A stretch of 64,000 nucleotides of DNA from Candidatus Poribacteria bacterium (GCA_018644665.1 JABGQA010000059.1:34839-98838), one strand, 5' to 3'. Shown: positions 40,063 through 60,800, counted from the first letter of the stretch. The notes: a model not told the origin generated them from the sequence alone. Program-made: numbers and translations.

Positions 40063-40136
40063 GGTCCTCTGTCACCTACATAACGGGCCAAGATGCCCGG
40101 TGGGAGTATCGCCGAGTCCGCGTAATCCGGGCGCGG

Positions 40137-40535
40137 CTATTCTTCACGCTCGGCCTTTGCCGTAGCCTCGTCTATCAGGTCCCGCGCCTTCCGCAGGTCG
40201 GACAGCGAATGCGCGCCGCCTTCCGCCATGTGGGCGACCAGGGACGTCCAGGAACCATCGAACCAGTCGTCGACGACCTTGTCGATACTAAGCTCCGTGG
40301 CTTCCTGGCGGGTGACGCGGGCGGAGAACCGATACGTCTTGCCCTCCCGCTTCGAGGTGACTACGGCGTCGGCCTTGAGCCGCGTCAATACGGTAGAAAC
40401 CGTCGTGTAGGCTAGCTTTCTCTCGTATTGGAGCGCGTCGTGTACCTCACGGACGGTGGCGGCTCCGCGCTCCCACAGGACTTCCATAACGGCTAGCTGT
40501 AGGTCTGTTAGTGTCGGTGACTTCTTGCGCGGCAT
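40137..40535 (-). CDS. BlaI/MecI/CopY family transcriptional repressor
   Basis: The winged-helix N-terminus is LTDLQLAVMEVLWERGAATVREVHDAL...LAYTTVSTVLTRLKADAVV.SKREGKTYRF. The start was trimmed to the ATG at 40535 (MPRKKSPT). It lies 74 nt upstream of the BlaR1-like gene. Confidence 0.85.
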   Translation of the reverse strand: MPRKKSPTLTDLQLAVMEVLWERGAATVREVHDALQYERKLAYTTVSTVLTRLKADAVVTSKREGKTYRFSARVTRQEATELSIDKVVDDWFDGSWTSLVAHMAEGGAHSLSDLRKARDLIDEATAKAEREE

Positions 40536-40560
40536 AGGGCTCCCACTTGTGCTTTCCCCG

Positions 40561-40589
40561 AGTATATACTGCGGGCAGGTCGAATGCAA
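40561..40589 (-). promoter_or_regulatory. sigma-70-type promoter TTGCAT-17-TATACT for the blaI/blaR1-like operon
   Basis: The minus strand reads CTACACTTGTAG-TTGCAT-tcgacctgcccgcagta-TATACT. This is the same operator/-35 arrangement as at 37432-37472. Confidence 0.5.
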
Positions 40590-41561: not shown

Positions 41562-41695
41562 CTGAGAGATGTCCCCGCCTTGCGTGGTGTTTCATCGGTC
41601 GCAGAAGGAGCGCCCAGTACGTACACACGTAGGGATGCACCCCGCGAGAGAGCCGCATGAGCGCACGGGCCGCCTCAGCTCGGGGCTGCTGTGGG

Positions 41696-42748
41696 TCAGT
41701 GCTCGGAGATCCAATCCCCCAGGAACTGCAACCCGTTCTCGATGAGGGGTTCGACGAGCACTCCCCGGGGCCCGTTCCGGGTATCGATACACACCTCCAG
41801 GTACACGCCGCTTCCGTGCTGCAAGTAGCATGCCGCCGGGTCGCCGTTGTCGTCTCTGTCGGACAGGATCACCCACGAGGCGTCGAGGCCCGAGAAGCTA
41901 TCGTCGAGAACTGCGACATCCAGATCGTACGTGTTGGGCTGACTGAATAGCCCGGAAGCCGTTCCTGCTGCGGTGACGGTAGAGTCGGAGTTGCCCTCGT
42001 TCAGGACGGTGATGGGATGCGTCGCGATGGGCATCCACGCCCCTACCTGATCCCCGTTGCCGTCCGTGAAGTTGTCGTCGAATGCGGAAATCCAGATTGC
42101 GCCGCCCGCTTGGACCCACGCGTCCACCGTCGCTTCCGTGCCGGCCATGAAGTAGTCGCCATCATGCCCCGGCCCGTTCCACGGGAACCACACGATGTCC
42201 GCGCTCCGCATGTCCCCGTCGAAGCCGGAGGGGTCGATGTTCACCGATTCATATGTGAACGTGTTGTCCCCAACAGACGCCACTGTGGTCAGGTAGCTTG
42301 ACTCGCTCTCTCTGGTATCTCCGATCAAGATGAGCACCTTGTACGACGCCTGCTTCGTGATCGTGATGCCCATCGAGATGGTCGCAAACGTGTCGGAGTT
42401 CACCCCAGCTACCAGAAGCGTGTACGGTTTCCCCGCCGGGGTCGCGTTGAGCGTCACGTTGTTGGAGAAGCTCGCCCCAGTGAAGATCCCTTCCTCTACG
42501 ATCGTCCCTGTGTCGTCGTCCTGTACGCCCCATGCTTGGTTGACAATCGCCGGTGTGCTGGACGACGTGCCAGCGAAGGAGATCGTGTACGTGTCACTAC
42601 CCGACGTGAACGAGGAACCCGTCGGCGAAGTGATGGCGAATACAGGAGCGGCGGCGGACGCGCTACGCGGCATCGTACCCACGGTGGCTACAATCAGCAT
42701 GAACCCTACCGCAGCGACTAGCCGTCCGAACGTCGGAACTGGAATCAC
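41696..42748 (-). CDS. hypothetical secreted protein (Ig-like N-terminal part plus a possible class-I glutamine-amidotransferase-like C-terminal fold)
   Basis: A signal-like segment is FGRLVAAVGFMLIVATVGTMPRSASAAAP. The start is uncertain (GTG 42748 or ATG 42700). The longer ORF overlaps the upstream gene. No catalytic motif was recognised. Confidence 0.5.
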   Translation of the reverse strand: MIPVPTFGRLVAAVGFMLIVATVGTMPRSASAAAPVFAITSPTGSSFTSGSDTYTISFAGTSSSTPAIVNQAWGVQDDDTGTIVEEGIFTGASFSNNVTLNATPAGKPYTLLVAGVNSDTFATISMGITITKQASYKVLILIGDTRESESSYLTTVASVGDNTFTYESVNIDPSGFDGDMRSADIVWFPWNGPGHDGDYFMAGTEATVDAWVQAGGAIWISAFDDNFTDGNGDQVGAWMPIATHPITVLNEGNSDSTVTAAGTASGLFSQPNTYDLDVAVLDDSFSGLDASWVILSDRDDNGDPAACYLQHGSGVYLEVCIDTRNGPRGVLVEPLIENGLQFLGDWISEH

Positions 42749-42788: not shown

Positions 42789-43070
42789 CTACTTCTGGAC
42801 AAGCAGCCGTTGGGTCTGTCTCGTCGCGCCGGCGCGGAACTCAGCGTAGTACGTTCCACTGCTGACGCGTTCTCCTTGCGCGTTGCGGCCATCCCAATGC
42901 GCCGCCTCCTGGCGCTCGCGGTAGGTCCCCGCAGCTCGCACGCCTAGCTCGATCAGTCTGACCGTCTTACCATGCGCATCGTAGATCACAACGGAAACGG
43001 ACGCGGCGTCGGCTAGTTGGAAGGGGAGCCATGTTTCTGGGTTGAAGGGGTTTGGGTAGTTCGGCAGCAG
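42789..43070 (-). other. T9SS-type/FlgD-Ig-like C-terminal domain (93 aa), second copy in the window
   Basis: NYPNPFNPETWLPFQL...VVIYDAHGKTVRLI...AHWDGRNAQGERVSSGTYYAEFRAG. Confidence 0.75.
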
Positions 43071-44603
43071 CGTAGTGCGGCGTGGCGTGGCTAGGGCAAG
43101 GAGCCCCTCCAACGCGGATATGCCTCGCCGGAATAGGTCCGACCCGTTGTCGCGCGCGCGCGCCTGGCGCAGCCACTCGGAGATGTCCGCCGAATGCGTC
43201 CCGTCAGGATGCTGGGGCGATGCGGTCACGACGCCAGCCGTCTTGCCGAAGTGTGACGCGACGGTGACCAAGTCGATGATGTTCACGAGGCCGTCGCTGT
43301 TGGCGTCCGTAGGGAGACCCTGGCCAGACGAGCCGAACGCCTGAGCGATCATCACGAGGTCGATGATATCAACTCGGCCGTCGCCATTGACGTCGCCCGT
43401 GATGGGGTCGCCCGTGCCGGGGTCGGGCGTGTGGGCCACGGCGATCGTGTATATGTCCCAGTCGCCATCACGGTTCGACGCGAATGCAAGCGCCGCCCCA
43501 TCTGGGGACCACGAGGGCGCGCCATCACTCGTCGGGTGGTTGCTCACGTTCGTGAGACCGCCGCCAGCGACGTCAGCGGCGTAGACCTCCGTGTTGCCGT
43601 CGCGCATCGACTCGAACGCCACCGTTGTACCGTCGGGCGACCATACTGGCGAGTCGTCTTGCGCGGGGTGCCGGCTCAGATTGCGCATATCTCCTGTGGC
43701 GACGACCACGACATACACTTCCGCGTTGCCGTCCCGGCGAGAGACAACAGCGAGTCGGGATCCGTCGGCAGCCCAGGTCAGTGACCCCTGCGCTGCAGCT
43801 CCTCGCGTGATCTCGCGCCGACTGCCGCCATCGACGTCTGCGATATGGATTTCTGACTTCCCGGGGCCGCCTGAGAGGAAAGCGATCCTGTCGCCTCCAG
43901 GCGACCATGCGGGAGCATGTTGGTTACCAGCGAAACGGCCGAGTGATCGCCTGTTCGTTCCGTCCGTGTCGCTGATGTAGATGTCGGGGTTCCCAGATGA
44001 GGCAGTAGATGTGAAAGCGACTCGGCTGCTGTCCGGCGACCAAGCTGGATCCCAATCCATTGATCCCGTGGGAGTCAGGTTACGGAGAGCGCTCCCGTCC
44101 GCGTCGACTACATGCAGTACGGTCCTGCCGTCTCGGATAGAGAGGAATGCCAACGTGTCACCATCGGGCGACCACTCAGGCGCCCGACTCTCCGGGACAG
44201 TTGGAGCCAATGGGACGGCTGCGCCTCCATTGGTGTCCACGACATAGACGCTGCCGTGGCCGTCCACATCAGAGACGAACGCGAGCCGGGCGTGCACGGC
44301 GCCCCATGCTGGCCCCCAGTCGGACGCGTTGTTCTCGGTCACTGCTTTCGGGACTTCTGCCGCCTGCGCGACCACTCCGGTAGTGACGAGCAGGACGGCG
44401 AGCGCGCACGCCCAGCCTGCCTCGCCACGGCGAGAACTCAAGGCAAGGGCGACGGGGTGGAGCAGATGGGAGTTTGACGTCTGGCCGGCAATGACGGATA
44501 CGGGCCAGGCCCAAGCGCAGTCGCGTGTCATGTCTGCCCAAAACCGGTGTGGGCCGAGCGACGTAGCCCGGTGGAGTGCGCTGTGGCCAGTATGCACCAG
44601 CAT
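42789..44603 (-). CDS. secreted PD40 (TolB-like) beta-propeller protein with a dockerin-type repeat pair and a T9SS-type C-terminal domain
   Basis: Multiple PxWSPDG units are present (PEWSPDGDTLAF, PAWSPDSSRVAF, PAWSPGGDRIAF, PVWSPDGTTVAF, PSWSPDGAALAF). The dockerin is GDVNGDGRVDIIDLVMIAQAF...DANSDGLVNIIDLVTVASHFG. The tail is LLPNYPNPFNPETWLPFQL. The start is uncertain (44603, ATG 44531, or TTG 44441, which gives MSSRRGEAGWACALAVLLVTTGVVAQA). Confidence 0.8.
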   Translation of the reverse strand: MLVHTGHSALHRATSLGPHRFWADMTRDCAWAWPVSVIAGQTSNSHLLHPVALALSSRRGEAGWACALAVLLVTTGVVAQAAEVPKAVTENNASDWGPAWGAVHARLAFVSDVDGHGSVYVVDTNGGAAVPLAPTVPESRAPEWSPDGDTLAFLSIRDGRTVLHVVDADGSALRNLTPTGSMDWDPAWSPDSSRVAFTSTASSGNPDIYISDTDGTNRRSLGRFAGNQHAPAWSPGGDRIAFLSGGPGKSEIHIADVDGGSRREITRGAAAQGSLTWAADGSRLAVVSRRDGNAEVYVVVVATGDMRNLSRHPAQDDSPVWSPDGTTVAFESMRDGNTEVYAADVAGGGLTNVSNHPTSDGAPSWSPDGAALAFASNRDGDWDIYTIAVAHTPDPGTGDPITGDVNGDGRVDIIDLVMIAQAFGSSGQGLPTDANSDGLVNIIDLVTVASHFGKTAGVVTASPQHPDGTHSADISEWLRQARARDNGSDLFRRGISALEGLLALATPRRTTLLPNYPNPFNPETWLPFQLADAASVSVVIYDAHGKTVRLIELGVRAAGTYRERQEAAHWDGRNAQGERVSSGTYYAEFRAGATRQTQRLLVQK

Positions 44604-45089: not shown

Positions 45090-46016
45090 GTGCGCCTCAT
45101 CTCCGTTGCGCTGCTCGCTCTCACGCTCTCCGGCTGCGCTGCCATCCAGTCCGCGAACCTCCTCACCACCGAAGACGAACTCAGCCTCGGTAAGCAGTTC
45201 GACGCCGAGATATCGAAAGAGGCCGAGTTCCTCGAAGACCCGGAGATCGTCGGATACGTCGATGATCTGACGCAGCGGCTTGCCAAGGTCTGCAAACGCG
45301 CGGACATCGAGTACCACGTGCGCGTTGTCGTGTCCGACGAGATCAACGCGTTCGCCGTCCCGGGCGGGTTTCTGTACGTGAACCTCGGACTCATGCGCGC
45401 GGCGAAGTCAGAGGCGGAACTCGCGGGAGTCATGGGTCACGAAATCGGCCACGTGGTTGGGCGTCACGGCGCGAAGCACATGACCCAGCAGATGGGGCTC
45501 GCCGCTATTGTGGGCGTCATCGCCGGTGACGACCCTGGTCTCACCAAAGAGATCGTCGGTGGGCTCGTCGCCGTCGGCGGGCAAGGGCTCCTCCTCAAAT
45601 ACGGTCGCGAGGACGAACTCGAGGCGGACTCCTACGGCATCCAGAACCTGTACGATGCTGGCATCGATCCGTCGGGTCTCGTCACCTTCTTCGATGCGTT
45701 GCTGACTCAGGAAGGCGGCGGGGACAACGGCATCGGCCGGATGCTCTCCACGCATCCACCGACCAAGCAGCGGATAGCGCAGGGCAAGGCACAGGTCGAC
45801 GCGCTACCCGCCCGTTCTGGATTGCAGAAGACGAGCGCGCGCTTCCGCCGCATCCAGAAGATGCTGCCGGCCCCCAAGGAGCCCGTTGAGAAGGAGGCCG
45901 CCACGCGTGGCGAGGGTCGCGATGAACCGCGCGTAGGCGTTCGGGTTATAGTACATGGCGGGCAAAAGCCGGACGACGTGGACCCAGCAGGGGGCGATGC
46001 TGCGAATGGCAGCTAA
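45090..46016 (+). CDS. M48 family zinc metalloprotease lipoprotein
   Basis: The lipobox is LLALTLSGC-A. The HEXXH motif is GVMGHEIGHVVGRH, with a downstream ELEADSYG. An SD sequence, GAGGA, lies upstream of the GTG start. Confidence 0.85.
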   Translation: MRLISVALLALTLSGCAAIQSANLLTTEDELSLGKQFDAEISKEAEFLEDPEIVGYVDDLTQRLAKVCKRADIEYHVRVVVSDEINAFAVPGGFLYVNLGLMRAAKSEAELAGVMGHEIGHVVGRHGAKHMTQQMGLAAIVGVIAGDDPGLTKEIVGGLVAVGGQGLLLKYGREDELEADSYGIQNLYDAGIDPSGLVTFFDALLTQEGGGDNGIGRMLSTHPPTKQRIAQGKAQVDALPARSGLQKTSARFRRIQKMLPAPKEPVEKEAATRGEGRDEPRVGVRVIVHGGQKPDDVDPAGGDAANGS

Positions 46017-47586
46017 GAAGATCCCGACGCAAGAGGAACTGCAGGAAGACCTCGCGGAGTTCCTCCGTCAGAAGTACGGCGACCATGTGCAACTCGGCGT
46101 ACAGGTCCAGGGCCACGGGGAACGCGAGACCGAGGTCGAGCCTCCAGAGTCGGAGGACAACGAGGAACTCAAGCAGAGAATCCTCGAGTTCGACATGACC
46201 CCCAAGGAGGTGAAGGCGTACCTCGACCGGTTTGTCATCGGTCAGGAGGACTCCAAGCGCGCCCTCGCCATCGCCATCTGCGACCACTACAACCACATTC
46301 GCGAGTGCGAGCACGATCCCGAGTTGAGGGAAGCCGACTACTCCAAGCAGAACGTGCTCATGGTCGGCCCAACGGGCGTCGGCAAGACGTACCTCATCCG
46401 CACGTTGGCGAAGCTCGTCGGGGTGCCGTTCGTGAAGGCGGACGCGACAAAGTTCAGCGAGACGGGATATGTCGGCGGTAACGTCGAGGATCTCGTGCGC
46501 GACCTCGTGACGCAGGCTGATGGTGACTTGGAACTCGCGCAGTACGGCATCGTCTACCTCGATGAGGTGGACAAGGTCGCCACGCCCCCGAACATCATCG
46601 GGCGCGACGTGAGCGGCCGCGGCGTGCAGATGAACCTGCTCAAGCTGATGGAGGAGACGGACGTCGATCTCCGCTCGCCCTTCGACCCGGCGAGTCAGAT
46701 GCAGGCGGCGATGGAGTTCCAGAAGAAGGGCAAGGTCGAGAAGCCGACCATCAACACGCGGTACATCCTCTTCATCGTCAGCGGGGCGTTCACGAACCTC
46801 GTCGACCTGGTGAAGAAGCGCGCGCACAAGACGACGTTGGGTTTCGGCGGCAACGTCGAGCGCGACGACGACGCGGAGTACCTCGCGCAGGCCATCTCGG
46901 AAGACTTCGTCAAGTTCGGCTTCGAGCCGGAGTTCGTCGGCCGGTTGCCGGTGCACGTGTTCTGCCACCAACTCTCGGTGGAGCATCTGTTCGAGATACT
47001 CCAACACTCCGAGGGATCGATCATCCGTCAGTACGAGCGCGCCTTCCGCGCCTACGGGATCGAGGTGATCTTCGAGCAGGAAGGCCTCAAGGCGATCGCC
47101 GAGTTGGCGCACGAGGAAAAGACGGGCGCGCGCGGGCTGATGACCGTTTGCGAGCGGCTCTTCCGCAACTTCAAGTACGAACTCCCAGCCACCGACGTGA
47201 CCATGTTCGTTGTTAACCGCGAACTGGCCGACCACCCGGCCGATGTCCTGGAACGGCTCCTGGCCGACCCGGGCTTCCGGCAGCGGTCGGTCGGTCGCTA
47301 CATCCTCTCGCGGTACGCCGCGCAGTTCCTGGAACAGACCGAAATCGAGTTGGAGTTCGCCGAGGACGCGATCGACGCCCTCTGCGACAAGGCCGTCGGC
47401 ACGGGCGACGAACTGTTCGGCGTGGCTCTGACGATGTTCCACGACTATGAACACGGCCTGAGCCTCGTGCGGCGCAACACGGGCAAGGCATCGTTCGTGA
47501 TAACGCGCGATGTGGTCGATAACCCGGACGGCGTGCTAAGCGACTGGATTCGCGAGTCGTACACCGAGCAGGAGCCGACGGCGTAA
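45997..47586 (+). CDS. ClpX-family AAA+ unfoldase paralog lacking the N-terminal C4 zinc-binding domain
   Basis: YLDRFVIGQEDSKRALAIAICDHYNHI; Walker A GPTGVGKT; pore loop ETGYVGGNV; Walker B IVYLDEVDKV; LGFGG in the position of the ClpP-docking IGF loop; PEFVGRLPV. There are no Cys residues in the acidic N-terminal region. The start is ambiguous (45955, 45997 or 46006). The stop lies 3 nt before fliR. Confidence 0.8.
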   Translation: MLRMAAKKIPTQEELQEDLAEFLRQKYGDHVQLGVQVQGHGERETEVEPPESEDNEELKQRILEFDMTPKEVKAYLDRFVIGQEDSKRALAIAICDHYNHIRECEHDPELREADYSKQNVLMVGPTGVGKTYLIRTLAKLVGVPFVKADATKFSETGYVGGNVEDLVRDLVTQADGDLELAQYGIVYLDEVDKVATPPNIIGRDVSGRGVQMNLLKLMEETDVDLRSPFDPASQMQAAMEFQKKGKVEKPTINTRYILFIVSGAFTNLVDLVKKRAHKTTLGFGGNVERDDDAEYLAQAISEDFVKFGFEPEFVGRLPVHVFCHQLSVEHLFEILQHSEGSIIRQYERAFRAYGIEVIFEQEGLKAIAELAHEEKTGARGLMTVCERLFRNFKYELPATDVTMFVVNRELADHPADVLERLLADPGFRQRSVGRYILSRYAAQFLEQTEIELEFAEDAIDALCDKAVGTGDELFGVALTMFHDYEHGLSLVRRNTGKASFVITRDVVDNPDGVLSDWIRESYTEQEPTA

Positions 47587-47589
47587 CGC

Positions 47590-48366
47590 ATGGAATTCCT
47601 GCAGACGCCAACGCTGGCGGCGTTCCTGCTGGTGCTGGTCCGCACCAGCGGGCTCATGCTCATCGCGCCGCTGTTCGGCGACCGCCCTGTTCCGACGACG
47701 GTGAAAATCTCCCTGGCGTTGCTGCTGGCGCTGGTTCTGTTCCCGGTCTTGCCGGTTCAGCAGTTCCACGAGGTGTTGACCACGACCGGCTACGCAATCA
47801 TCATCTTCAAGGAGTTGTTGATCGGCATCGTCATCGGTTACGCGGCGCAGACGGTCTTCGCCGGCGCCATGATGGCGGGTCAACTCATCAGCTTCCAGAT
47901 GGGTCTCGCCCTGGCAAGGGCGTTAGATCCCGTGGCGGGCGTGCAGAGCACGCTCGTATCGGTGCTGTACAGGTGGCTGGCGCTGATGACCTTCATCGCA
48001 GTGGGCGGTCATCTCCACCTTCTGGTGGCGCTGGGTGACAGCTATAAGATGATCGGCTTCGGGCAGACCGTGTTCGACGGTAAGGCGCTGGTGCTGATCC
48101 TCAACCTGCTGAACGACCTGTTCAAGATAGCGATCCGCATCGCGGCGCCGTCGACGGTCGTTCTGTTCTTCACGAACTCGGTGCTGGCGATCATGGGTCG
48201 CGCGATGCCGCAGATGCACATCTTCCTCGTGGGTCTGCCGCTGACGATGCTGCTGGGGTATACCATCCTGGCGCTATCGGTTGCGGGTGTGGTGGCTCTA
48301 TTCCCGGACTTGTATCTGCAGCTGCGTATCGCCACGGGGTATCTACTGGAAGCGATGAGCCCCTGA
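47590..48366 (+). CDS. fliR: flagellar biosynthetic (export gate) protein FliR
   Basis: LLVLVRTSGLMLIAPLFG, six or more TM segments and a typical FliR length (258 aa). It is followed by flhB. Confidence 0.9.
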   Translation: MEFLQTPTLAAFLLVLVRTSGLMLIAPLFGDRPVPTTVKISLALLLALVLFPVLPVQQFHEVLTTTGYAIIIFKELLIGIVIGYAAQTVFAGAMMAGQLISFQMGLALARALDPVAGVQSTLVSVLYRWLALMTFIAVGGHLHLLVALGDSYKMIGFGQTVFDGKALVLILNLLNDLFKIAIRIAAPSTVVLFFTNSVLAIMGRAMPQMHIFLVGLPLTMLLGYTILALSVAGVVALFPDLYLQLRIATGYLLEAMSP

Positions 48367-48384
48367 CGACCGGCGGAAGAGGTC

Positions 48385-49557
48385 ATGGCAGACGAACAGG
48401 AAAAAACTGAAGACCCATCGCCTAGGAAAATCGAAGAGGCGCGCGAAGAAGGCACTGTAGCGCGCTCTCCCGAGGTTCCTATCGCGTTGGGCTTGCTGGC
48501 GGCGATTCTCGCGCTACGCGTGAGCGCCCAGAGCATCGTCACGAATCTCGAGCACGTGATGAAGTTCTACTTCTCCGCGGTCGGTCAGTACGTCGGCGAG
48601 GACGTCACGATCATGCGGATTCAGGAGTTGTCCCTTCACAGCGTGCGTTTCCTCGTCGCTATCATGGGGCCGCTGTTTCTGACGTTGTTCTGCATGGGCC
48701 TGTTCTCGAACCTGATCCAGGTCGGGCCGATGTTCTCCGTCAAGGCGTTGATGCCCAAGCTCAGCCGAGTGTCTCTGGGCAAGGGTCTCGGGTCGATGTT
48801 CTCACAGAAGAGCATCGTCGAGGCGGTCAAGGGCCTGCTGAAGGTGATCCTGCTGCTCTCGCTCGCCTATCGCATGATCATAAACCAGGTGCCAATGATT
48901 CTCGCGCTACCCCTGGCCGGGCACGAGCCGGTGATCAAGGTCATGACCTGGCTCGTCTATCGGCTGGCTCTCGTCATGGTGATCGTGTTCACGATCCTCG
49001 CCGCCATCGACTACGTGTACCAGCGCTGGCGCCATTTCCAGAACCTGCGCATGAGCCGCGAAGAGGTCAAGGAAGAGACGAAGCAGTACGAAGGTGACCC
49101 TCAGACCAAGGGACGTATCCGTTCCATCCAACGAGATCTCGCGCGACAGCGGATGATGGGGGACGTCCCCGAGGCGTCGGTCGTCATCACGAACCCGACG
49201 GAAATAGCGGTCGCGCTGAAGTACGAGCAGGATTCGATGGAGGCGCCGCGGGTCGTGGCTAAGGGGCAACGCCTCATCGCGCAGCGCATCAAGGCGCTCG
49301 CGAAGGAAAACCGCGTGCCGATCATGGAAGACAAGCCCCTGGCCCGTGCGATCTACGCGGAAGTGCCGTTGGGTGGAGAAATCGGCAGCCAATACTATCG
49401 CGCCGTGGCGGAAATCCTGGCGTACGTCTACCGTCTGCGCCGTCCGATGGCGCGTCACCTCGCGCAGAATCCGCCTTCGAACGCTCCCACACCGTCGCCC
49501 AGCGCATCTCCACCCCCGGCGACCTCGCCCGGCGTCGCTCCCGCCCCGGGATCGTGA
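48385..49557 (+). CDS. flhB: flagellar export switch protein FlhB, with a Pro-rich C-terminal extension
   Basis: KTEDPSPRKIEEAREEGTVARSPEV; four TM segments; EVKEETKQYEGDPQTKGRIR; the autocleavage region VVITNPTEIAVALKY; VVAKGQRLIAQRIKALAKENRVPIMEDKPLARAIY. Confidence 0.95.
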   Translation: MADEQEKTEDPSPRKIEEAREEGTVARSPEVPIALGLLAAILALRVSAQSIVTNLEHVMKFYFSAVGQYVGEDVTIMRIQELSLHSVRFLVAIMGPLFLTLFCMGLFSNLIQVGPMFSVKALMPKLSRVSLGKGLGSMFSQKSIVEAVKGLLKVILLLSLAYRMIINQVPMILALPLAGHEPVIKVMTWLVYRLALVMVIVFTILAAIDYVYQRWRHFQNLRMSREEVKEETKQYEGDPQTKGRIRSIQRDLARQRMMGDVPEASVVITNPTEIAVALKYEQDSMEAPRVVAKGQRLIAQRIKALAKENRVPIMEDKPLARAIYAEVPLGGEIGSQYYRAVAEILAYVYRLRRPMARHLAQNPPSNAPTPSPSASPPPATSPGVAPAPGS

Positions 49558-49582
49558 AGGATCGTCATAGGATGAGCGCAGG

Positions 49583-50863
49583 ATGATCGTAAGACGTTAC
49601 GAAGCGGCAACGGAGGAGGAGGCGCTTCGAAAGGTCGACGCGGACCTGGGTCCGCGCGCCGTCATCCTCCTGACCAAGCACGAGCCGGGCGAGAGTTGCG
49701 AAGTCGTCGCCGCCATCAACCCAATGGACATCGCCCCGGACGGCGCCGAGCCGCGCCGCGCTGACGAGGGTCAGGCGACTGATGACTTGGCGAGTGTGTC
49801 TCCGACGCGGGAGGCGCAAACCCCACCACTTCCAAACCGGACGCCGCCTAGCGGGCCGGCGCCCGCCCCGCGTGGGGAGCCGCCGCAACCCGAGGCGCCT
49901 CAGGGGCGTGACTCGGTAGGAGGGCCGGACTTCGGCTCGCCCCGAGTCGGGACCCGGCGAGAGGCCGCGCCCGTGGACGACTCGTCGTGGCTTACGAAGA
50001 TACGTCGTGGACTCGCGCACAGCGCCTACACGGGCGGTCAAGCATCGGCGTCGGACCCTCCCGTCACGCCGCCTACGCCGGCCGTCTCGATCGACGCCGC
50101 CTTGCGGCGGCGCCTCGACCAACACGATGTCGGCGAGGATCTGCTGGAGTCGATCCTGGCGACAGCGCAGACGCACACGGGCATGGACGATCTTCGGGCA
50201 GTGCTCGTCGAGGCCATGCGTCCGCACGTGAAGTTCGCCGATGGCATCGAGACGGTCGAGCGTCCGTCGGTAGTCGCTCTGCTCGGGCCTACGGGAGTGG
50301 GGAAGACGACGACGGCGGCCAAACTCGCGGCGCGCTACGCGCTTCAGGACATGAAGCGGGTTGGCCTCATCACGACAGACACGACGCGAGTGGGCGGGTC
50401 CGAGCAGCTTCAGGCGTACGCGAACATCATCGATGTGCCGTGTGTCGTGGCGCAGTCGCCGGATGAGGTTTCCACGGCCCTACTGGACTACTCGGCATAC
50501 GATCTCGTCCTGGTCGACACGCCCGGAAGAACCGCGGCCGATCGCGCGGGTATCGCCGACCTGCGAGCGTTGCTGGACGCGGCACAGCCACACGAAACAC
50601 ATCTTCTAGTGAGCGCGACCACACGCCGTGCTGACCTGTGGGAGACGGCGCGCGGCTTCCATGAGCTGTCTCCGGGTCGCATCGCTTTCACCAAGCTGGA
50701 CGAGACGACCGTCTTCGGGGACATCGTCAATTTCGCGCATCACACGCGCATGCCACTGTCGTACTTCAGCACGGGGCAGACGATTCCCGACGCGATCGAG
50801 GTCGCGACTCCCGACAGACTCGCGCGGTTACTTGTTTCCGAGCGGCGTCCGTTCTATTGTTAG
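49583..50863 (+). CDS. flhF: flagellar biosynthesis SRP-type GTPase FlhF
   Basis: The G1 motif is LLGPTGVGKTTTAAKLAA. DTPGR and TKLDET are also present. An N-terminal B-domain with a Pro-rich linker is seen. Confidence 0.9.
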   Translation: MIVRRYEAATEEEALRKVDADLGPRAVILLTKHEPGESCEVVAAINPMDIAPDGAEPRRADEGQATDDLASVSPTREAQTPPLPNRTPPSGPAPAPRGEPPQPEAPQGRDSVGGPDFGSPRVGTRREAAPVDDSSWLTKIRRGLAHSAYTGGQASASDPPVTPPTPAVSIDAALRRRLDQHDVGEDLLESILATAQTHTGMDDLRAVLVEAMRPHVKFADGIETVERPSVVALLGPTGVGKTTTAAKLAARYALQDMKRVGLITTDTTRVGGSEQLQAYANIIDVPCVVAQSPDEVSTALLDYSAYDLVLVDTPGRTAADRAGIADLRALLDAAQPHETHLLVSATTRRADLWETARGFHELSPGRIAFTKLDETTVFGDIVNFAHHTRMPLSYFSTGQTIPDAIEVATPDRLARLLVSERRPFYC

Positions 50864-50925: not shown

Positions 50926-52047
50926 ATGAGTATCTTCCCGTGCGTCCGTGGGGTGTGCATCGCGCTGTGCTTGCTGCTATACCCGCTGTACGGGTCGGCG
51001 GCTGGCGTGAATCTCACCCACGTCCAATCCGATCCCGACGCCGATGCACCCTCTCTTCGACTGGAATTCTCAGCCGAACCCAAGTGGGGGCAGACCGTTA
51101 CGTTGCTCGGCGCCGAGCAGGAGTTGCGCCTCGAGTTTACCGACACCGCGAATGTGGCCACGCAGGACGGCTACCGGCGTGAGTTCTCCGACGCCGCTGG
51201 CTTCGTCCATGCGTTGGAGATCGGCGAGGAAACCGAGGAAGACACGACGCGCGTTGTCGTGCGTCTCACATTCCCGCTGACCTCAGGAGCCACGGTGGCT
51301 GCGGGAGCAACACCGAACGTCCTCATTGTAAAGATGACCCCGGGGTCGTCTGGAGCCGCCGTTCCGCTATCGGCGCGCGCCGGGCCTTCCGAGGCGACCC
51401 GCGCCGACGTTCGCACGCTGTACATTGTGGGGGGTCTGATCCTCCTGATCGGCACCGGAGTAGTGGTGGGGTATCTCCTGCTGAGTGGCTCCGGGCGCAA
51501 GCGGGCCCGGACGGCCGCGGTTGGCGTTCCGGCCGAGGAAGCGAAGTCGCTCATGCGCGAGGACGTGGACGCCTATCGGGAGACGTCCGACGCAGCCCTG
51601 GATGCCTCGCACGAGCGGCATCAGAGATTGGTGCGCATCGTCAGACAGGACATGTCCGAGATGCGGCTGGAGATGAAATCCCTGGGCGCCGAATTCGAAC
51701 GGGCGACGCAGAGCGTGCTGCTCTTCGGCGAACCGTTTGTCGCCCGGCCGGACGACTCGCCGACGGAACTCGACGGGATCGTGTCGCCGCAGGCCGTTGC
51801 GGGCGGAGTAACGCTAGGCGCCGACACGGAGGCGTCGTCCGAGAGCGTCGCGACAGAAGACGCTGAGGGCTCCCAAGTGGCTCGCGACGACTCGCCCTAC
51901 GCTCGGGCCCGGCGTCTCGTTCAGGAAGGCGCGGATCTCGCGGAGGTCGGACGGATCACAGGACTCAGTTCCGCGGAACTCGACCTCCTGGCGCGTCTAG
52001 GGCGCATGCAGTCCAGTCGAGCGACGCAGGGCAGCCACGCGGAATAA
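50926..52047 (+). CDS. hypothetical bitopic membrane protein: AMIN-like periplasmic domain, TM, coiled coil, DUF2802-like C-terminal helix-turn-helix-like motif
   Basis: A signal-like N-terminus is followed by SLRLEFS...ELRLEFTD...TTRVVVRLTFPL (AMIN-like). The TM is LYIVGGLILLIGTGVVVGYLLL. The C-terminus is YARARRLVQEGADLAEVGRITGLSSAELDLLARL. Domain calls are by resemblance only. Confidence 0.55.
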   Translation: MSIFPCVRGVCIALCLLLYPLYGSAAGVNLTHVQSDPDADAPSLRLEFSAEPKWGQTVTLLGAEQELRLEFTDTANVATQDGYRREFSDAAGFVHALEIGEETEEDTTRVVVRLTFPLTSGATVAAGATPNVLIVKMTPGSSGAAVPLSARAGPSEATRADVRTLYIVGGLILLIGTGVVVGYLLLSGSGRKRARTAAVGVPAEEAKSLMREDVDAYRETSDAALDASHERHQRLVRIVRQDMSEMRLEMKSLGAEFERATQSVLLFGEPFVARPDDSPTELDGIVSPQAVAGGVTLGADTEASSESVATEDAEGSQVARDDSPYARARRLVQEGADLAEVGRITGLSSAELDLLARLGRMQSSRATQGSHAE

Positions 52048-52054
52048 ACCCTAG

Positions 52055-52069
52055 TGGTTGCAGGAATGC
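52055..52069 (+). promoter_or_regulatory. weak candidate sigma-54 (-24/-12) promoter TGGTTG-N5-AATGC
   Basis: The GG and GC dinucleotides have the canonical spacing (TGGttgcaggaaTGC). It lies in the gap upstream of the giant vWA gene, and a sigma-54 activator is encoded nearby. Only the core positions match. Confidence 0.25.
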
Positions 52070-52223
52070 GGGGAACTGCGTATTATTACGTTCTGCCCGG
52101 ACCGAGCGGGACAGACTTTTGGGTGTGACATGTCGCCGGCCGTTGGGTAGGCGCTACGTGCCTGCGCGTGGTCCCGACCCGGCACGGTGTCCCGCTATTG
52201 GCAACAGATACGGGGACTACGCG

Positions 52224-55200
52224 GTGTTTACCAGGCCTCAGACGCGGCGCCGATCGACCGGCACGTCACTGATTGCGACTCTGGTTCTCGGCTTTGTCGC
52301 ACATGTGTCGCTTTATGCCCAAAGCGCGCCCACCGCTTCGGGACCGTTACCAAGCGCCTCGGGGGCTCCCGTGCCGCTGGTATCGGTGACCCGCCGCCAC
52401 ATTGTCTTCGCGCTCGACCAATCCATCTCGATGGATCATCTGGATCCTGAGCGACTTCGGATTGAGGGCCTGCGCAAACTGCTCTATGGTCTCAGTCCTA
52501 CCGACCAGGTGGGTCTCGTTCTTTTCGGGGACGCTGCGCGGATCGCCGTCCCCCTGGCGCCAGCAAGCAGCGCGAACATGGGCGCTCTGTTGCGTGAGGC
52601 CAACGCCCCCAGCGCCGTCACGGGCTCTCCTGACCTAAACCGCGCGATGCAGACCTCTTTGGGTATGCTGCCCAAGGGCGTGGACGGGGTTATCTCCTCG
52701 GTCATCCTGATATCCAGCGCTCGTATGCCTGAAGGTATGGATGAGGAGGCTGTCAAGGCGGCAACGATCGCGTTGCGACGCTCCACCTACACGTTCATCC
52801 GGGCGAACGCCGACCTGTATGCCATCGCGCTTGGGCCGTTCTCCGACAAGGCTCTGGCTCTGACATCCGTCATGAGGAGCCGGACGAATCAGTATGAAGT
52901 AGAGACCGGGAACGGGCTCCCGCAGGTCTTCGGGAAGATACTCGTCCAGGTGCAGGGGTATGGCCAGCGTCCTGTCTTGGCGCGCCTCGATCCCGAGGCC
53001 GCGTCCGTGGACAAGCAGGAGTTGGTCCAGGCGGTTCGGGTTGCGCCGTACACGGAACTGCTCCAGATCGACATCGTCTCGGAATCGGACCAGTCCGGGG
53101 TGATCGGCTTCGCCGTTGCCCTCAAGAACCCCGAAGGTGACATAGTCCCCCCGACGTTCCAGAGCAGCGGGAACGCGTTCTACCGCATTCCCGGACCCAT
53201 GGCTGGGGAATGGCAATACGGGGTGAAACCAGAGCGCAAGGCTCGGATCACGCACCAGGTCATCACGGACACTGGTCTGAAGATCGTGCACTACTACCCG
53301 TCGGTGGTCGAAGTCGGTAAGGCCATTGACCTGTACTCCTCTGTCCTGACTCGGCAGGGGCCGGTGGAGGTAGACAGCTTCAAGGTCGGCACCGTCGACT
53401 ATCAGTTCGCGCAGGCCGACGTGACGTTCGTGGGCCCTGACGGTACCTCGGAGACTATCCGGGCGCAGCTCGAAGGACGCCGATCTGTGTACGCGGGTGA
53501 GTACAAGGTCACCAACTGGCGAGGGGACGTACCCGGCGCGTACGATGTCGACATCGCGATATACCTGCGCAAAGAGAAAGAGCTGCACGGCGATCTGTTC
53601 GAGATGCACAACATCCAGCCGATAACGATCCATGTGGTCGACGACCGCAGCCAACTGCCCCTGGTATCCCTGGCATCCGTAGATCCGGTATCGACCGATG
53701 GACGTCCTATCCCACTCTTCGACGCTCAGGGCAGGGCCCCGCAACTGAGCTTCTATGCAGAGGTGCTCGAGCGGGGCGTCGGCGGCGTGTCGCCGTACAT
53801 GCTCGGGCGCACGATCATCGCGCGGGTGAAGCGGGGCGACGGCTACGAACTGACCGGGGATGTCGGCCAGGCGACCCTGACCGGGTACAAGCGTCCGGTG
53901 GGCCCTCCCTCTCTGCTTCTGGAGCCGGACACCACCGTGGCGCGTCGGGTGCAGTACGCCTTTCCCACGCTCAACACCTCCGCGCGCGACAAAGTGTATT
54001 TCGAGCAGGCCGGGTACTATCGCGTACAACTTATAGAGGGTCCGACCTATCGCGTCGACGCGGCACGCGCATCGGTCGTCCGGCAGGTAGGGGACGAGCC
54101 GCTCAGCAGCACCGCCATCGTCATGCTTGCCCTTGGCGGGCTGGTGGCCGTGTTCGGCGGGGCGCTGTATCTGCTCATCGAGTGGGGCAAGATTGATCTG
54201 GCTCCGCGCGGCGCTGGCGATCAGCTTGACGACGTTCTCATCGAGGACGAACCCACGTTCACGACCTTCACGGATGTCTTCGACGAGAACCTGTTCGACA
54301 TGCCGCAGAACATCCCGTTGGAGATCGCCGTTTTCGAGCATGGAATGCTCACGAACCATACGACGTTCGACACGGAGCGATCCGAGAATTACGTCGTTAA
54401 GGTGCTTCGGGGTAGCGCCTACATCAACGGCTCTCCGGTGACCGATGAGTTCGACTTACACATGCGCCCCGAGGATGAGTTCCAGGTCGGCGACTTCAAA
54501 GCCGGAATCTCGGGGGTCGAGGACCTCGTGATTCAGTTCATGGTGGAAGATGTCGGGGAGAGCACGGTCATCAACGTGATAACGGACACGGGAGTCCAGC
54601 GATGGACCATCACCTCCGCACCGGAGCTCCGTGTGCCTCCGCGGCCAGGGGAGACGCGCACGCTGGACTTCTCCGAGCAAGATGAACTCCTCATCGCGCG
54701 GGATGAAGGACTGGACGCCGATCACCCGATGGACATCGCTCTATACCACGAGTCGGTGGGCGCCCCCCACGCCAAATTCACCAAGCAGACGTACCTCAAC
54801 GGCTCGGTCGGCTATGGCGTCGAGGCAATCCGGGGCAGCCTGTACGTCAACGATCGTCGGCTCGAACCCGAAGAGGTCGTCGAGGAGTTCAGCCCGGGGA
54901 CCACGATCAAGATCGGGCGCTTCACATTCAAGTACAATTGGGATCAGGGCCCCGACGCGCAACACCCCGTGCTGGAGTTCTTGGAGGCGCCGGAAGCGAC
55001 TCCATTACCTATTACCGATATCCACAACGATCCTCCGGCGGATGTCGCCGAGGAAACGGACGCAGCGACCGTTGACGAGGAGGCCCTCGACGCGCTGTTC
55101 GACGACGGAGACGGCCCATCAGAGGACGAGGACGACGACTCGACCGCTGATGGCGAGAGTGCTGTGGACGCCGTAGCCGATATCGTCGACGATGACGCGG

Positions 55201-55925
55201 CTCCGGCCGAGGAGGGCGCGCTCGACGAGATGTTCGCGGCTCCGGCCGAAGGTGAGGTTCCCGTCGCCGATCCTGTCCCGGACGCCGACGAAGCAGCCCT
55301 GGATCTCGATGCCCTGCTGGCCGACGACGAAACCGAGGGCGATGAGCCGGGCGAAGACGTGGATGCTGGAGCGCCGGGTGAAGCGCCCACGCTGGACGCG
55401 CTGGTCGGTGATGAGCCGGGACCGGAAGGGGATGTTGCGGAAGAGGCTCCCCAGGCGGAGACGGCCGACGAAACCGCCGACGCGTTGACCGGTCTGCCGA
55501 CCTCCGAGGGTTTCGCTGATCGGCTGAACGAGGACTGGGCCGCCGCCGAAGCCGCTGACCTGCCGATGTCGATGGTCCTCGTGGACGTCACTCGGATAGC
55601 AAGTGACGGCGATGAGTCGGCTGCAACGGAAGTCGCGCGCGTACTGAGCAGCGAATTCGCGGCCGTTGGGACGCCGTCGCACGCGGGCGAGCATCTGTTA
55701 GCCCTGGTGCTCACGAACGTCCCGCTGGACGAGGCCATTGAGGTCGCCGGATTGGTCCAGACTGCTCTCGGTGGCGCGTTCCCTGACTCGTCGGAAGGCA
55801 TCTCCATGGGCGTGTCGGAACGACGCGGAAGCAGAGCGGAAGACGCCGCCGGATATCTACGGTCACTTCGTGAAGCAATGGACGAAGGCGTTGCGGCGGG
55901 CCAGAACTTCGTCGTATACGGTTAG
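52224..55925 (+). CDS. giant bitopic protein: periplasmic vWA domain, TM, two FHA-like modules, acidic (E/D)xALDxL repeat region, degenerate GGDEF-like C-terminal domain
   Basis: The GTG at 52224 gives a signal peptide VFTRPQTRRRSTGTSLIATLVLGFVAHVSLYAQS (the ORF is open from the TTG at 52119). The vWA MIDAS is IVFALDQSISMD...VGLVLFGD. The TM is TAIVMLALGGLVAVFGGALYLLIEW. The FHA-like segments are VLRGSAYINGSPV...FQVGDF and AIRGSLYVNDRRL...IKIGRFTFKY. The GGDEF fold is TGLPTSEGFADRL...MVLVDV...AGEHLLAL, with the GGDEF signature replaced. Confidence 0.75.
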   Translation: MFTRPQTRRRSTGTSLIATLVLGFVAHVSLYAQSAPTASGPLPSASGAPVPLVSVTRRHIVFALDQSISMDHLDPERLRIEGLRKLLYGLSPTDQVGLVLFGDAARIAVPLAPASSANMGALLREANAPSAVTGSPDLNRAMQTSLGMLPKGVDGVISSVILISSARMPEGMDEEAVKAATIALRRSTYTFIRANADLYAIALGPFSDKALALTSVMRSRTNQYEVETGNGLPQVFGKILVQVQGYGQRPVLARLDPEAASVDKQELVQAVRVAPYTELLQIDIVSESDQSGVIGFAVALKNPEGDIVPPTFQSSGNAFYRIPGPMAGEWQYGVKPERKARITHQVITDTGLKIVHYYPSVVEVGKAIDLYSSVLTRQGPVEVDSFKVGTVDYQFAQADVTFVGPDGTSETIRAQLEGRRSVYAGEYKVTNWRGDVPGAYDVDIAIYLRKEKELHGDLFEMHNIQPITIHVVDDRSQLPLVSLASVDPVSTDGRPIPLFDAQGRAPQLSFYAEVLERGVGGVSPYMLGRTIIARVKRGDGYELTGDVGQATLTGYKRPVGPPSLLLEPDTTVARRVQYAFPTLNTSARDKVYFEQAGYYRVQLIEGPTYRVDAARASVVRQVGDEPLSSTAIVMLALGGLVAVFGGALYLLIEWGKIDLAPRGAGDQLDDVLIEDEPTFTTFTDVFDENLFDMPQNIPLEIAVFEHGMLTNHTTFDTERSENYVVKVLRGSAYINGSPVTDEFDLHMRPEDEFQVGDFKAGISGVEDLVIQFMVEDVGESTVINVITDTGVQRWTITSAPELRVPPRPGETRTLDFSEQDELLIARDEGLDADHPMDIALYHESVGAPHAKFTKQTYLNGSVGYGVEAIRGSLYVNDRRLEPEEVVEEFSPGTTIKIGRFTFKYNWDQGPDAQHPVLEFLEAPEATPLPITDIHNDPPADVAEETDAATVDEEALDALFDDGDGPSEDEDDDSTADGESAVDAVADIVDDDAAPAEEGALDEMFAAPAEGEVPVADPVPDADEAALDLDALLADDETEGDEPGEDVDAGAPGEAPTLDALVGDEPGPEGDVAEEAPQAETADETADALTGLPTSEGFADRLNEDWAAAEAADLPMSMVLVDVTRIASDGDESAATEVARVLSSEFAAVGTPSHAGEHLLALVLTNVPLDEAIEVAGLVQTALGGAFPDSSEGISMGVSERRGSRAEDAAGYLRSLREAMDEGVAAGQNFVVYG

Positions 55926-55954
55926 ACTTCGGAAGAGCCTGTGAGGGGAACTGA

Positions 55955-56902
55955 ATGCGATCTCTTGACTCGACCGCGGATTCGACGGCAGGCGCGGTAA
56001 TCCTTGCGGTGGATGATGACCACCACAACCTGTTTATGCTCCAGCGGCGACTCGAGGGCCATAACTACCGCGTATTCACGGCATCCTCGGGCAAGAGCGC
56101 AATGGACTTGGCCGCCGAGCACAGCCCTGACCTCATCCTCCTCGACATCACCATGCCTGAGATGGATGGCTTTGCCGTCAAGGAGGCCCTGAACCAAGAC
56201 GACCGGCTCGGGTCAATCCCAGTCATATTCCTATCCGACCGGGTGCAAATCGAGTTCAAAGTCCGCGCGTACGGGCTGGGCGGCACGGACTTCCTCTCGA
56301 AGCCGTTCCACCCAGAGGAACTGCTGGCGCGCATGCAGGTTGGGCTACGTCACCACATGCGGGCGCGGATGTACGAGAACGAGATATCGAATCTCGAAGA
56401 AGCCATGCGAACCGGTGGCGTCCAGGGCGCCGACGAGGAAGAGGCGCTCGAGCGTCTGACCCGTGCGATGCAGATGGCCGAGAGCCGGAGCGACCCGGTC
56501 TCCGTGCTGGATCTCAGGATCGTGGGCCTGGCGGAGATGAACAACGCTCCGCTCGCGCGCGTTATCCTGATGGAGACCAGCGAAGTTCTGCACGAGATGG
56601 TCAACGCTGCGACGGATACCGTATTGGCATACCGCGAGCAGGGCGAATACCTCCTCCTCGCTGTTGGCACCACCAGTAAGCGGGCGCAGATCCTCGCCGA
56701 AGGACTCAAGAGCAGCATCATGGTGCGCGCGTTCGCCGACCCGAACGCCGAAGACCAGCTCGAGGTGAGTATCGGCATTGCCGCGTGGGAGCCGGGCCAG
56801 GACTACACCGCCGAGGACATCCTCGCCGGCGCCAGCGAGGCCATGGAGTCCGCGGCGGGAGCCGGCGGCAGCCGTACGGTCGTCAAGCGCTTCGAGGAAT
56901 AA
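55955..56902 (+). CDS. response regulator: REC domain plus a degenerate GGDEF-like output domain
   Basis: The REC motifs are ILAVDDD, DLILLDITMPEMDG and SKPF. The C-terminal fold has REQGEYLLL in place of GG(D/E)EF, and no RxxD I-site is visible. Confidence 0.85.
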   Translation: MRSLDSTADSTAGAVILAVDDDHHNLFMLQRRLEGHNYRVFTASSGKSAMDLAAEHSPDLILLDITMPEMDGFAVKEALNQDDRLGSIPVIFLSDRVQIEFKVRAYGLGGTDFLSKPFHPEELLARMQVGLRHHMRARMYENEISNLEEAMRTGGVQGADEEEALERLTRAMQMAESRSDPVSVLDLRIVGLAEMNNAPLARVILMETSEVLHEMVNAATDTVLAYREQGEYLLLAVGTTSKRAQILAEGLKSSIMVRAFADPNAEDQLEVSIGIAAWEPGQDYTAEDILAGASEAMESAAGAGGSRTVVKRFEE

Positions 56903-56937
56903 TCCGATGAGCGGCGGCGCATATGGCGAGGTGAATC

Positions 56938-58269: not shown

Positions 58270-58276
58270 GTCCACG

Positions 58277-58954
58277 GTGATGTCCCAGCCTTTGTCGCGT
58301 CTTCGCCTCCAGCCCTGCCCGAGCGCGCGTGGCGGCTGCGCCGTGCCGGTGTTCGCCGCGATCATCCTGGTGTTGGTCTCTTCGGGGTGCGACCGCACGC
58401 CGGTCGTACACGATGTCCGCCCGCGAGAGATCCCCGAAACTGGCGCCACGGTCGTGACTGTCCGGGGCGACCGCTTCCGTGGTGGGACGCGCGTCACTCT
58501 GAACGGCTCGGTACTGTCGGACACGACCGTCGTCGACAAGACCACGTTGCGCGCCACGCTCCCTCCCTCGAATCCCGGGCCGGCCAGGATCGGCGCGGTG
58601 ACGTTGCCGGACGCGCCCTCACCCACGACGGTCGAAGTCCTCTACGTCGACGTTACGCCTCCTCGAGTCATAGGCTGGGAGCCGGCCGGGGCCCTGCCGC
58701 CCGACGCAACCACGAACCGCATCCGTGTCACCTTCTCCGAGCCGATCGAGACAGGGTCTCTTGACCTACGAGACGACGCCGGCTCCGAAGTGCTCGGCTC
58801 CGTATCGCGACTGGGGGCAGTGTTGGTCTTCGCGCCGTCAGAAAGTCTGCTCGCGGGTCGCGGCTACGTGGCCTCGGTGTACGGCGTCACGGACGCACGT
58901 GACAACGCGGCCGCGTCCGAGCGACTGCGCTTCTCGATCGCCTCGCCCGAGTAG
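58277..58954 (+). CDS. lipoprotein with an IPT/TIG domain and an SbsA-type Ig-like domain
   Basis: The lipobox is ILVLVSSGC-D. The TIG-like segment is TGATVVTVRGDRFRGGTRVTLNG. PPRVIGWEPAG...IRVTFSEPIETGS is typical of Big_5/SbsA_Ig. Confidence 0.65.
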   Translation: MMSQPLSRLRLQPCPSARGGCAVPVFAAIILVLVSSGCDRTPVVHDVRPREIPETGATVVTVRGDRFRGGTRVTLNGSVLSDTTVVDKTTLRATLPPSNPGPARIGAVTLPDAPSPTTVEVLYVDVTPPRVIGWEPAGALPPDATTNRIRVTFSEPIETGSLDLRDDAGSEVLGSVSRLGAVLVFAPSESLLAGRGYVASVYGVTDARDNAAASERLRFSIASPE

Positions 58955-60690: not shown

Positions 60691-60747
60691 CCGCCCGGCT
60701 ATGTCTCCGTTCCGCAAGTGGTAACCCTGCGGAAACCCTTCTGACAT

Positions 60748-60778
60748 GGGCGGCGCCATCCGATGGCGCCGCCCTTTT
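60748..60778 (+). terminator. rho-independent terminator after flagellin 1
   Basis: GGGCGGCGCCATC-c-GATGGCGCCGCCC followed by TTTT. Confidence 0.8.
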
Positions 60779-60800
60779 CCCGCTCAAGTGCACTTCGCGC

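Follow-up and report, generated by a model that had tools for sequence, protein, structure and literature searches.

A ClpX-like AAA+ unfoldase subfamily with exchanged accessory parts, conserved next to fliR, flhB and flhF in one clade of Candidatus Poribacteria

A gene for a ClpX-like AAA+ unfoldase, here called ClpX-L, stands directly upstream of the flagellar genes fliR, flhB and flhF in a stretch of DNA from Candidatus Poribacteria bacterium (GCA_018644665.1, JABGQA010000059.1:34839-98838). The whole stretch of 64 kb was analyzed and is referred to as the window; it has a G+C content of about 65%, and the closest relatives of its genes carry the name Candidatus Poribacteria. ClpX-L keeps the ATPase core of ClpX together with its pore loops and a loop of the ClpP-docking type, has other elements where ClpX has its zinc-binding domain and RKH loop, and ends in a second lid-like domain. 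By its sequence, it belongs to an old and so far unnamed ClpX-like subfamily with a new variant architecture of ClpX, of which no description was found in the literature searched. In one clade of Poribacteria, clpX-L, fliR, flhB and flhF form a conserved block. On balance, we favor the view that ClpX-L is a general-purpose paralogous unfoldase that is probably coupled to ClpP and that one lineage co-expresses with early flagellar genes, and not a machine part dedicated to the flagellum.

The core of the protein is that of ClpX. ClpX-L aligned with solved ClpX structures over amino acids (aa) 82 to 430 (E values of 1e-71 to 3e-73), and Walker A, Walker B, the arginine finger and sensor 2 all aligned to these structures; ClpX models matched the protein over aa 73 to 427 only. 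Motifs of the protein (Table 1) were counted over 202 sequences of the ClpX-L family. Walker A and the pore-1 loop GYVG were each present in 200 of the 202, the pore-2 motif GRDVSGxGVQ in 201 and sensor 2 in every member, and the [ILMV]GF tripeptide at the ClpP-docking position was found in at least 177. The scores with the curated ClpX models stayed just below the respective cutoffs, with 343.6 versus 359 for PRK05342 and 313.1 versus 370.75 for TIGR00382. Assignment as an HslU equivalog did not hold either, since TIGR00390 gave a score of 203.7 at a cutoff of 362.45, with the match broken into three stretches. An I-domain of the HslU type was seen neither in the structure alignments nor in the AlphaFold2 (AF2) model of full-length ClpX-L, which had a mean predicted local distance difference test score (pLDDT) of 74.5.

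The accessory parts are different. ClpX-L gave no match to the zinc finger PF06689, and not one of the 202 family members had paired CxxC motifs within its first 70 aa; the position of the C4 zinc-binding domain is taken by an acidic helix that is conserved across phyla. The RKH motif was likewise absent from all 202 members, and at the position of the GGRKHP (RKH) loop of ClpX there is a longer conserved segment (DLRSPFDPASQMQAAMEFQKKGKVEK). An earlier reading of the window, made from the sequence only, had stated that Walker A and B, the GYVG pore loop and an LGF at the ClpP-docking position are kept and that an acidic N terminus without a zinc finger replaces the usual domain. Both statements agree with the structure alignments, the Pfam search and the family-wide counts. 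What this sequence-only reading overlooked is the insert that replaces the RKH loop, the duplicated lid domain and the spread of the subfamily over several phyla.

At the other end, ClpX-L runs about 110 aa past the normal end of ClpX, and this tail was modeled by AF2 with a pLDDT of 88.5. In the model, the tail repeats the helix-strand-helix-helix-strand order of the lid domain that precedes it. A direct BLASTP comparison of the two segments gave an E value of 2e-4, and comparison of a small-domain profile with a profile of the C-terminal extension, both built from 48 family members, gave an hhalign probability of 97.7% (E value of 2.2e-12). Foldseek, run with the tail against the PDB, gave ClpX chains for nearly all of the best matches and HslU chains for the few others; these matches covered about 76 columns at 2.7 Å with a probability of 0.99 and a weak E value of about 0.14. 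All three comparisons support that the second lid-like domain is a tandem duplicate of the small domain; it lacks the sensor-2 tripeptide. Pfam had no match for either the N-terminal or the C-terminal extension at E values up to 1.

This architecture is not a peculiarity of the window. A protein search returned a large set of ClpX-L relatives of about 520 aa that are 55 to 97% identical over 95% of the length, and a genome scan found 130 loci that encode a relative. The best 80 of these 130 loci come from Poribacteria, Verrucomicrobiota, Acidobacteriota, Kiritimatiellia and Omnitrophota, and an isolate, Cerasicoccus frondis NBRC 105381 (Verrucomicrobiota), also carries the gene. The N-terminal IPTxEEL…KYG helix, the insert in place of RKH and the second lid domain are common to all members, from Poribacteria to Verrucomicrobiota and Acidobacteriota. 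When the C-terminal domain was searched alone, 264 representatives remained at 50% clustering, nearly all of which have the domain at or near the protein C terminus. In one protein of 1067 aa (P0140), twice the usual length, the domain lies at residues 953 to 1063; this could be a fusion or an artefact of gene calling. The models of defense systems in PADLOC gave negligible AAA matches only.

A neighbor-joining tree of ClpX-L follows the phyla, as is expected of an old, vertically inherited paralog. That ClpX-L exists as a paralog beside a canonical ClpX is suggested by the scores below the ClpX cutoffs, by the missing zinc-binding domain and RKH motif, by the gene for SmpB in the window (19288-19758, minus strand) and by the occurrence of the family in phyla that generally have a canonical clpX. 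The presence of SmpB indicates trans-translation and is thereby an indirect argument that the genome encodes a canonical ClpX, one with RKH, outside the window.

The relatives that are 65 to 97% identical to the window ClpX-L form one Poribacteria clade, and in this clade the block is conserved. ClpX-L is adjacent to fliR in 12 further loci, and the block has six upstream contexts if that of the window is counted. It was found in the window and in loci L002/L003, L004, L005, L006, L084, L085, L086, L089, L095 and L096. Upstream of it lies a gene for an M48 protease in the window, L004, L005 and L006 (the last of which ends inside fliR), the acetate kinase gene ackA in L002/L003, leuA in L084 and L095, mutY on the opposite strand in L085, a TPR-redoxin gene in L086 and, after a gap of 264 nucleotides (nt), an aldo/keto reductase gene in L096, whose contig ends after flhB. 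Downstream, flhF follows flhB in L002, L004, L005, L084, L085, L086 and L095. The next gene after flhF encodes a DUF2802 protein in the window, L004 and L005, a nucleotidyltransferase in L002 and a hydrolase in L084 and L095; in L085 it is valS, again on the opposite strand, and the block of this locus is thus flanked on both sides by opposite-strand genes. When 43 window genes were compared with six distant loci of the clade, the only close homologues were the four block genes, and three other matches were paralogs of 26 to 42% identity. ClpX-L was the best conserved gene in this comparison with 68 to 70% identity, followed by FlhB (60%), FliR (53%) and FlhF (35 to 39%). Because the block is intact while all of its flanks have been turned over, clpX-L–fliR–flhB–flhF bears the signature of a selected transcription unit.

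The spacing is mostly tight. The intergenic gaps in the window are 3 nt between the ClpX-L stop and fliR, 18 nt between fliR and flhB and 25 nt between flhB and flhF, and in the clade as a whole fliR starts -14, 3, 15, 37, 135 or 149 nt after the ClpX-L stop. No terminator-like site was found in the block junctions; terminator-like and sigma-70-like sites in the window occurred at chance level, and the sigma-54 promoter consensus gave 13 matches versus 19.5 expected, none of which was upstream of the block. Spacing and synteny together suggest that clpX-L is probably co-transcribed with fliR, flhB and flhF in this clade. This part of the co-transcription proposed in the sequence-only reading therefore stands, and the adjacency to fliR that it had noted in the window is indeed kept in the relatives. 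The M48 gene, which the proposal included, is not a constant member of the block: it is upstream of ClpX-L only in the window, L004, L005, L006 and L087, which make up one sub-branch. In L087, which lies inside the clade in the neighbor-joining tree, M48 and ClpX-L are followed by a hydrolase gene and there is no fliR. A metagenome scan with FlhB gave six loci, two of which were short close relatives, and added no synteny information.

FliR, FlhB and FlhF of the window all scored above the NCBIfam equivalog cutoffs (Table 1). The ClpX-L homologues start at MAAKKIPT, which corresponds to the ATG at 46006 and has GGGGG upstream of it (45990-45994); ClpX-L is thus most likely a protein of 526 aa. 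Because the start moves to this ATG, the overlap with the M48 gene is 11 nt and not 62 nt. Apart from this shift, the open reading frame (ORF) coordinates agree with the layout described before, in which the ClpX-like gene overlaps the M48 gene and stops just ahead of fliR. The claimed absence of fliP, fliQ, flhA and flhG nearby also agrees with our data, as none of the four was found by Pfam among 50 window ORFs. Between them, these 50 covered every ORF of 70 aa or more that had a coding-type signal in third-position G+C, except two. The two ORFs left out have 72 aa (8688-8906) and 97 aa (41657-41950), and a FliQ-sized gene of about 90 aa may have escaped among them or for want of a coding signal.

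Table 1. Features of the block and of ClpX-L in the window (window coordinates)
Feature	Position	Strand	Remarks
M48 zinc-metalloprotease lipoprotein gene (BepA/LoiP-like)	45090-46016	+	PF01435 2.8e-32; lipobox LTLSGC; HEIGH motif
Longest ORF of the ClpX-L gene, 543 aa	45955-47586	+	
Gene for ClpX-like AAA+ unfoldase ClpX-L, 526 aa	46006-47586	+	Start backed by homologues; PDB ClpX 8yd0, 2.5e-73 over aa 83-425
Acidic N-terminal helix (IPTQEELQEDLAEFLRQKYGD)	46021-46083	+	AF2 helix at residues 9-24 (526-aa numbering)
Walker A, GPTGVGKT	46366-46389	+	
Pore-1 loop, GYVG	46465-46476	+	
Walker B, IVYLDEVD	46549-46572	+	
Pore-2 loop, GRDVSGRGVQ	46600-46629	+	
Family-specific insert (DVDLRSPFDPASQMQAAMEFQKKGKVEKP) at the ClpX RKH loop position	46660-46746	+	Alignment to E. 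coli, M. tuberculosis and Listeria ClpX; AF2 helix 228-241
LGFGG, counterpart of the ClpX IGF loop (ClpP docking)	46837-46851	+	Aligned to GIGFGA of E. coli ClpX
Arginine finger, GRLP	46939-46950	+	
Arginine finger and first small (lid) domain with sensor 2	46939-47262	+	
Sensor 2, TGARGL	47122-47139	+	
C-terminal extension, second lid-like domain without sensor 2	47263-47583	+	
fliR, flagellar export-gate subunit	47590-48366	+	TIGR01400 180.5 bits (cutoff 168.6)
flhB, export-gate switch protein	48385-49557	+	TIGR00328 376.8 bits (cutoff 349.25); autocleavage motif NPTE
flhF, signal recognition particle-type GTPase, last gene of the conserved four-gene block	49583-50863	+	TIGR03499 185.9 bits (cutoff 174.15)

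The arrangement fliPQR-flhBA-flhFG was found neither in the window nor in any locus of the clade; the order is always ClpX-L–fliR–flhB–flhF and then unrelated genes, and the split fliR-flhB-flhF set is this clade's ordinary arrangement of scattered flagellar genes. In the window, the block stands at the head of a long flagellar region. The part at the 3' side of flhF (50926-58954) begins, at the usual place of flhG, with a gene for a 373-aa protein whose N terminus is hydrophobic (possibly a signal sequence) and which has another hydrophobic stretch inside and DUF2802 at its C-terminal end. Next come, co-directionally and with short gaps, genes for a 1268-aa protein with a VWA domain, a GGDEF response regulator, a response regulator that depends on sigma-54, and an Ig-like protein, and three tandem flagellin genes close the window (59824-63541). 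On the same contig, eight flagellin genes in a row stand 3' of the block and are followed by flgF, flgG, flgA and flgH. The cleavage motif of the window FlhB reads VITNPTEIA, which is probably unremarkable. More distant clade members have NPHE, and close relatives of 83 to 85% identity have NPTH; among 120 homologues, we counted NPTH 58 times, NPTR 15, NPTE 13, NPHE 10 and NPTY 9 times, in addition to others. The idea that NPTE or NPHE tracks the linkage to ClpX-L was rejected, since the fourth position varies naturally in these 120 proteins.

Outside the Poribacteria clade, the neighborhood of ClpX-L is a different one. No flagellar gene was seen near ClpX-L within the fetched flanks (up to 10 kb), and 70 of the 83 family loci fetched first had no match to fliR, flhB or flhF. 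The neighbors are lineage specific and mostly of a housekeeping kind, such as a chloride channel, HU, hisS, an LD-carboxypeptidase or a radical SAM protein, and no partner gene conserved across phyla was found. Neither clpP nor a zinc-finger clpX was found in the flanks of about 95 family loci. In Acidobacteriota, a conserved protein of about 234 aa is encoded on the same strand ahead of ClpX-L in some 33 to 36 loci, that is, almost always (for example, L024:8994-9698), and an S66 LD-carboxypeptidase gene lies two or three genes upstream. By eye, the 234-aa protein appears rich in helices and ends in a C-terminal tail with many Lys and Arg residues; Pfam gave no match. It may serve ClpX-L as an adaptor or a substrate.

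Further regions of the window were noted. On the minus strand (37501-40589), a BlaI-type repressor gene (40137-40589) adjoins a gene (37501-40062) in which a BlaR1/M56 sensor-protease is joined to PD40 beta-propeller repeats, a sensor domain that is not usual in this family. Also on the minus strand, 42789-44603 and 20165-24088 encode large secreted-type proteins that end in FlgD-Ig-like or T9SS-type sorting domains, one of which has PD40 repeats and a dockerin. Both are typical surface proteins of Poribacteria and, despite the name FlgD_ig, unrelated to the flagellar block.

How might ClpX-L act? It would probably form a hexameric, ATP-driven unfoldase and, because the docking loop is kept across phyla, would probably thread its substrates into ClpP. 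Since the zinc-binding domain, the RKH loops and the C terminus are all changed, its choice of substrates and adaptors probably differs from that of canonical ClpX, and the N-terminal helix, the insert at the top of the pore and the second lid domain are the candidate parts for altered recognition. In one lineage, ClpX-L would then be encoded by the first gene of a four-gene unit and be made together with export-gate subunits and the placement GTPase FlhF, and it may possibly exert proteolytic control over a flagellar or polar-assembly component. Several points weigh against this reading. The coupling to ClpP is deduced from one loop, with clpP missing from the neighborhood of the roughly 95 loci, and the additional lid domain could have changed the geometry of the ring. 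Furthermore, two loci with gaps of 135 to 149 nt between ClpX-L and fliR have room for an internal promoter. Finally, retention of the block through a complete turnover of its flanks argues for a selected linkage and leaves room for a real flagellar role.

It is also possible, if somewhat unlikely, that a housekeeping paralog came to stand upstream of fliR by chance and hitch-hikes there neutrally, maybe on a shared transcript and with no functional relation to the flagellum. The contexts of the family, which vary by lineage and consist mostly of housekeeping genes, would fit such a history, and the linked clade is monophyletic, which makes a single rearrangement sufficient; moreover, L087 has lost the linkage and kept the gene. 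Inertia, however, would hardly have preserved four genes in six contexts while every other neighbor was replaced, which is typical of selected operons.

We consider it unlikely that ClpX-L works without ClpP, as a stand-alone chaperone or extractor whose second lid and N-terminal helix bind another partner. Canonical ClpX has ClpP-independent activities as well, and both the two extra conserved noncatalytic modules and the lack of clpP in the fetched flanks would be in line with such a remodeler, but the [ILMV]GF loop persists across several phyla, in at least 177 of the 202 members. The IGF loop of ClpX has no known role besides ClpP docking.

A more specific and speculative idea, to which we give little weight at present, is that ClpX-L is an unfoldase directed at the export gate. 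It would be made from the transcript of FliR, FlhB and FlhF and would pull a component off the gate and, together with ClpP, degrade it. The autocleaved C-terminal domain of FlhB is one example; surplus FliR, FlhB or FlhF are other possible targets. In Salmonella, the secretion-specificity switch was recently shown to flip when this FlhB domain is removed and degraded, a task to which no machine has been assigned (PMC13344023), which makes FlhB an attractive candidate. In a broader form of this speculative idea, ClpX-L would be a new class of ClpP partner in which a duplicated lid and an insert at the pore top would have taken over from the zinc finger and RKH as the interface to substrates or adaptors.

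The proposal of the sequence-only reading, a dedicated quality-control or substrate-unfolding factor of flagellar type III export that acts with the M48 protease and the export-gate subunits, did not survive and is rather improbable. It would account for the tight block, which is kept in six upstream contexts with gaps as small as -14 nt, for ClpX-L being the best conserved gene of the block and for the position of the window block at the head of a large flagellar region. Yet orthologs occur across phyla in nonflagellar contexts, L087 has the gene without fliR, and C. frondis carries it although Cerasicoccaceae have no flagella (PMC10288369); ClpX-L is thus not dedicated to the flagellum. In addition, M48 is a periplasmic lipoprotein that is encoded upstream in one sub-branch only, and no sequence feature sets the flagellum-linked clade apart from the rest of the family. 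A sister clade of Poribacteria may point in the same direction. It contains more than 100 ClpX-L proteins, many from complete genomes, and no close FlhB was seen among the ranked matches; relatives of FlhB have at least 57% identity within the linked clade and then drop to at most 46% in other phyla, and none of the latter is named Poribacteria. This absence from a ranked list is suggestive of a clade that has no flagellum yet keeps ClpX-L. Least probable is that ClpX-L is the sole ClpX of its genome, a diverged ortholog in place of the canonical protein, because, even if some annotators call family members ClpX, the scores lie below both curated cutoffs, the zinc-binding domain and RKH loops by which canonical ClpX handles adaptor-delivered and ssrA-tagged substrates are missing, SmpB and hence trans-translation are present, and a canonical clpX is general in the phyla concerned.

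ClpX is among the best-studied unfolding machines, and its choice of substrates is credited to the zinc-binding domain, the RKH loops and the pore loops. In the ClpX-L subfamily, the first two of these are exchanged, a second lid is added, and the pore loops and the ClpP-docking loop are kept, which amounts to a natural experiment in the retargeting of an AAA+ protease. The conserved block with fliR, flhB and flhF offers a concrete place to look for substrates, and ClpX-L is a candidate, no more, for the activity by which inhibitory pieces bound to the gate are removed as the flagellum is assembled. Should the linkage be mere co-expression, the finding shrinks to a new, uncharacterized family of ClpX paralogs; the subfamily itself is the more durable finding than the flagellar link.

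Among the known systems, FliI, together with FliH and FliJ, is the ATPase to which the unfolding of flagellar export substrates and their loading at the FlhA/FlhB gate are normally ascribed. FliI is a rotary, F1-type ATPase unrelated to AAA+ ClpX; there is no sign of a substitution, and ClpX-L does not replace it. That a ClpX-type unfoldase can act on flagellar regulators has a precedent in the ClpXP turnover of FlhD4C2 in Salmonella and E. coli; degradation of FlhDC through YdiV and ClpXP is cited in PMC13344023. In that case, however, the unfoldase is the canonical housekeeping ClpX, whose gene belongs to tig-clpP-clpX rather than to a flagellar operon, and no FlhDC is known or was seen at the ClpX-L locus. 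HslU (ClpY) is the sister AAA+ unfoldase of ClpX and is, like ClpX-L, without a zinc finger, and the N-terminal part of the ATPase matched with an E value of 5e-60 (TIGR00390). HslU differs in having an I-domain in the large domain and in docking to HslV via its C terminus, whereas ClpX-L has an IGF-type loop and scores far higher with ClpX. The nearest described case is ClpX3 of Myxococcus xanthus (MXAN_2743), a second-tier ClpX paralog, which also lacks the N-terminal zinc domain and the RKH motif, is encoded apart from clpP and is dispensable, its deletion giving a heat-stress and no motility phenotype (PMC11423568). ClpX3 was rejected as an example of the same architecture, since at a length of 356 aa it has neither a second lid domain nor the N-terminal helix and linker. 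Canonical ClpX (E. coli; PDB 3HWS, 6PO1 and 8YD0) differs from ClpX-L in its C4 zinc domain, in the shorter segment at the RKH site and in its gene standing beside clpP; ClpX-L has an acidic N-terminal helix and an extra C-terminal lid instead, and the two share the large and small AAA+ domains, Walker A and B, GYVG, RDVSGxGVQ, the IGF-type loop, the arginine finger and GARGL.

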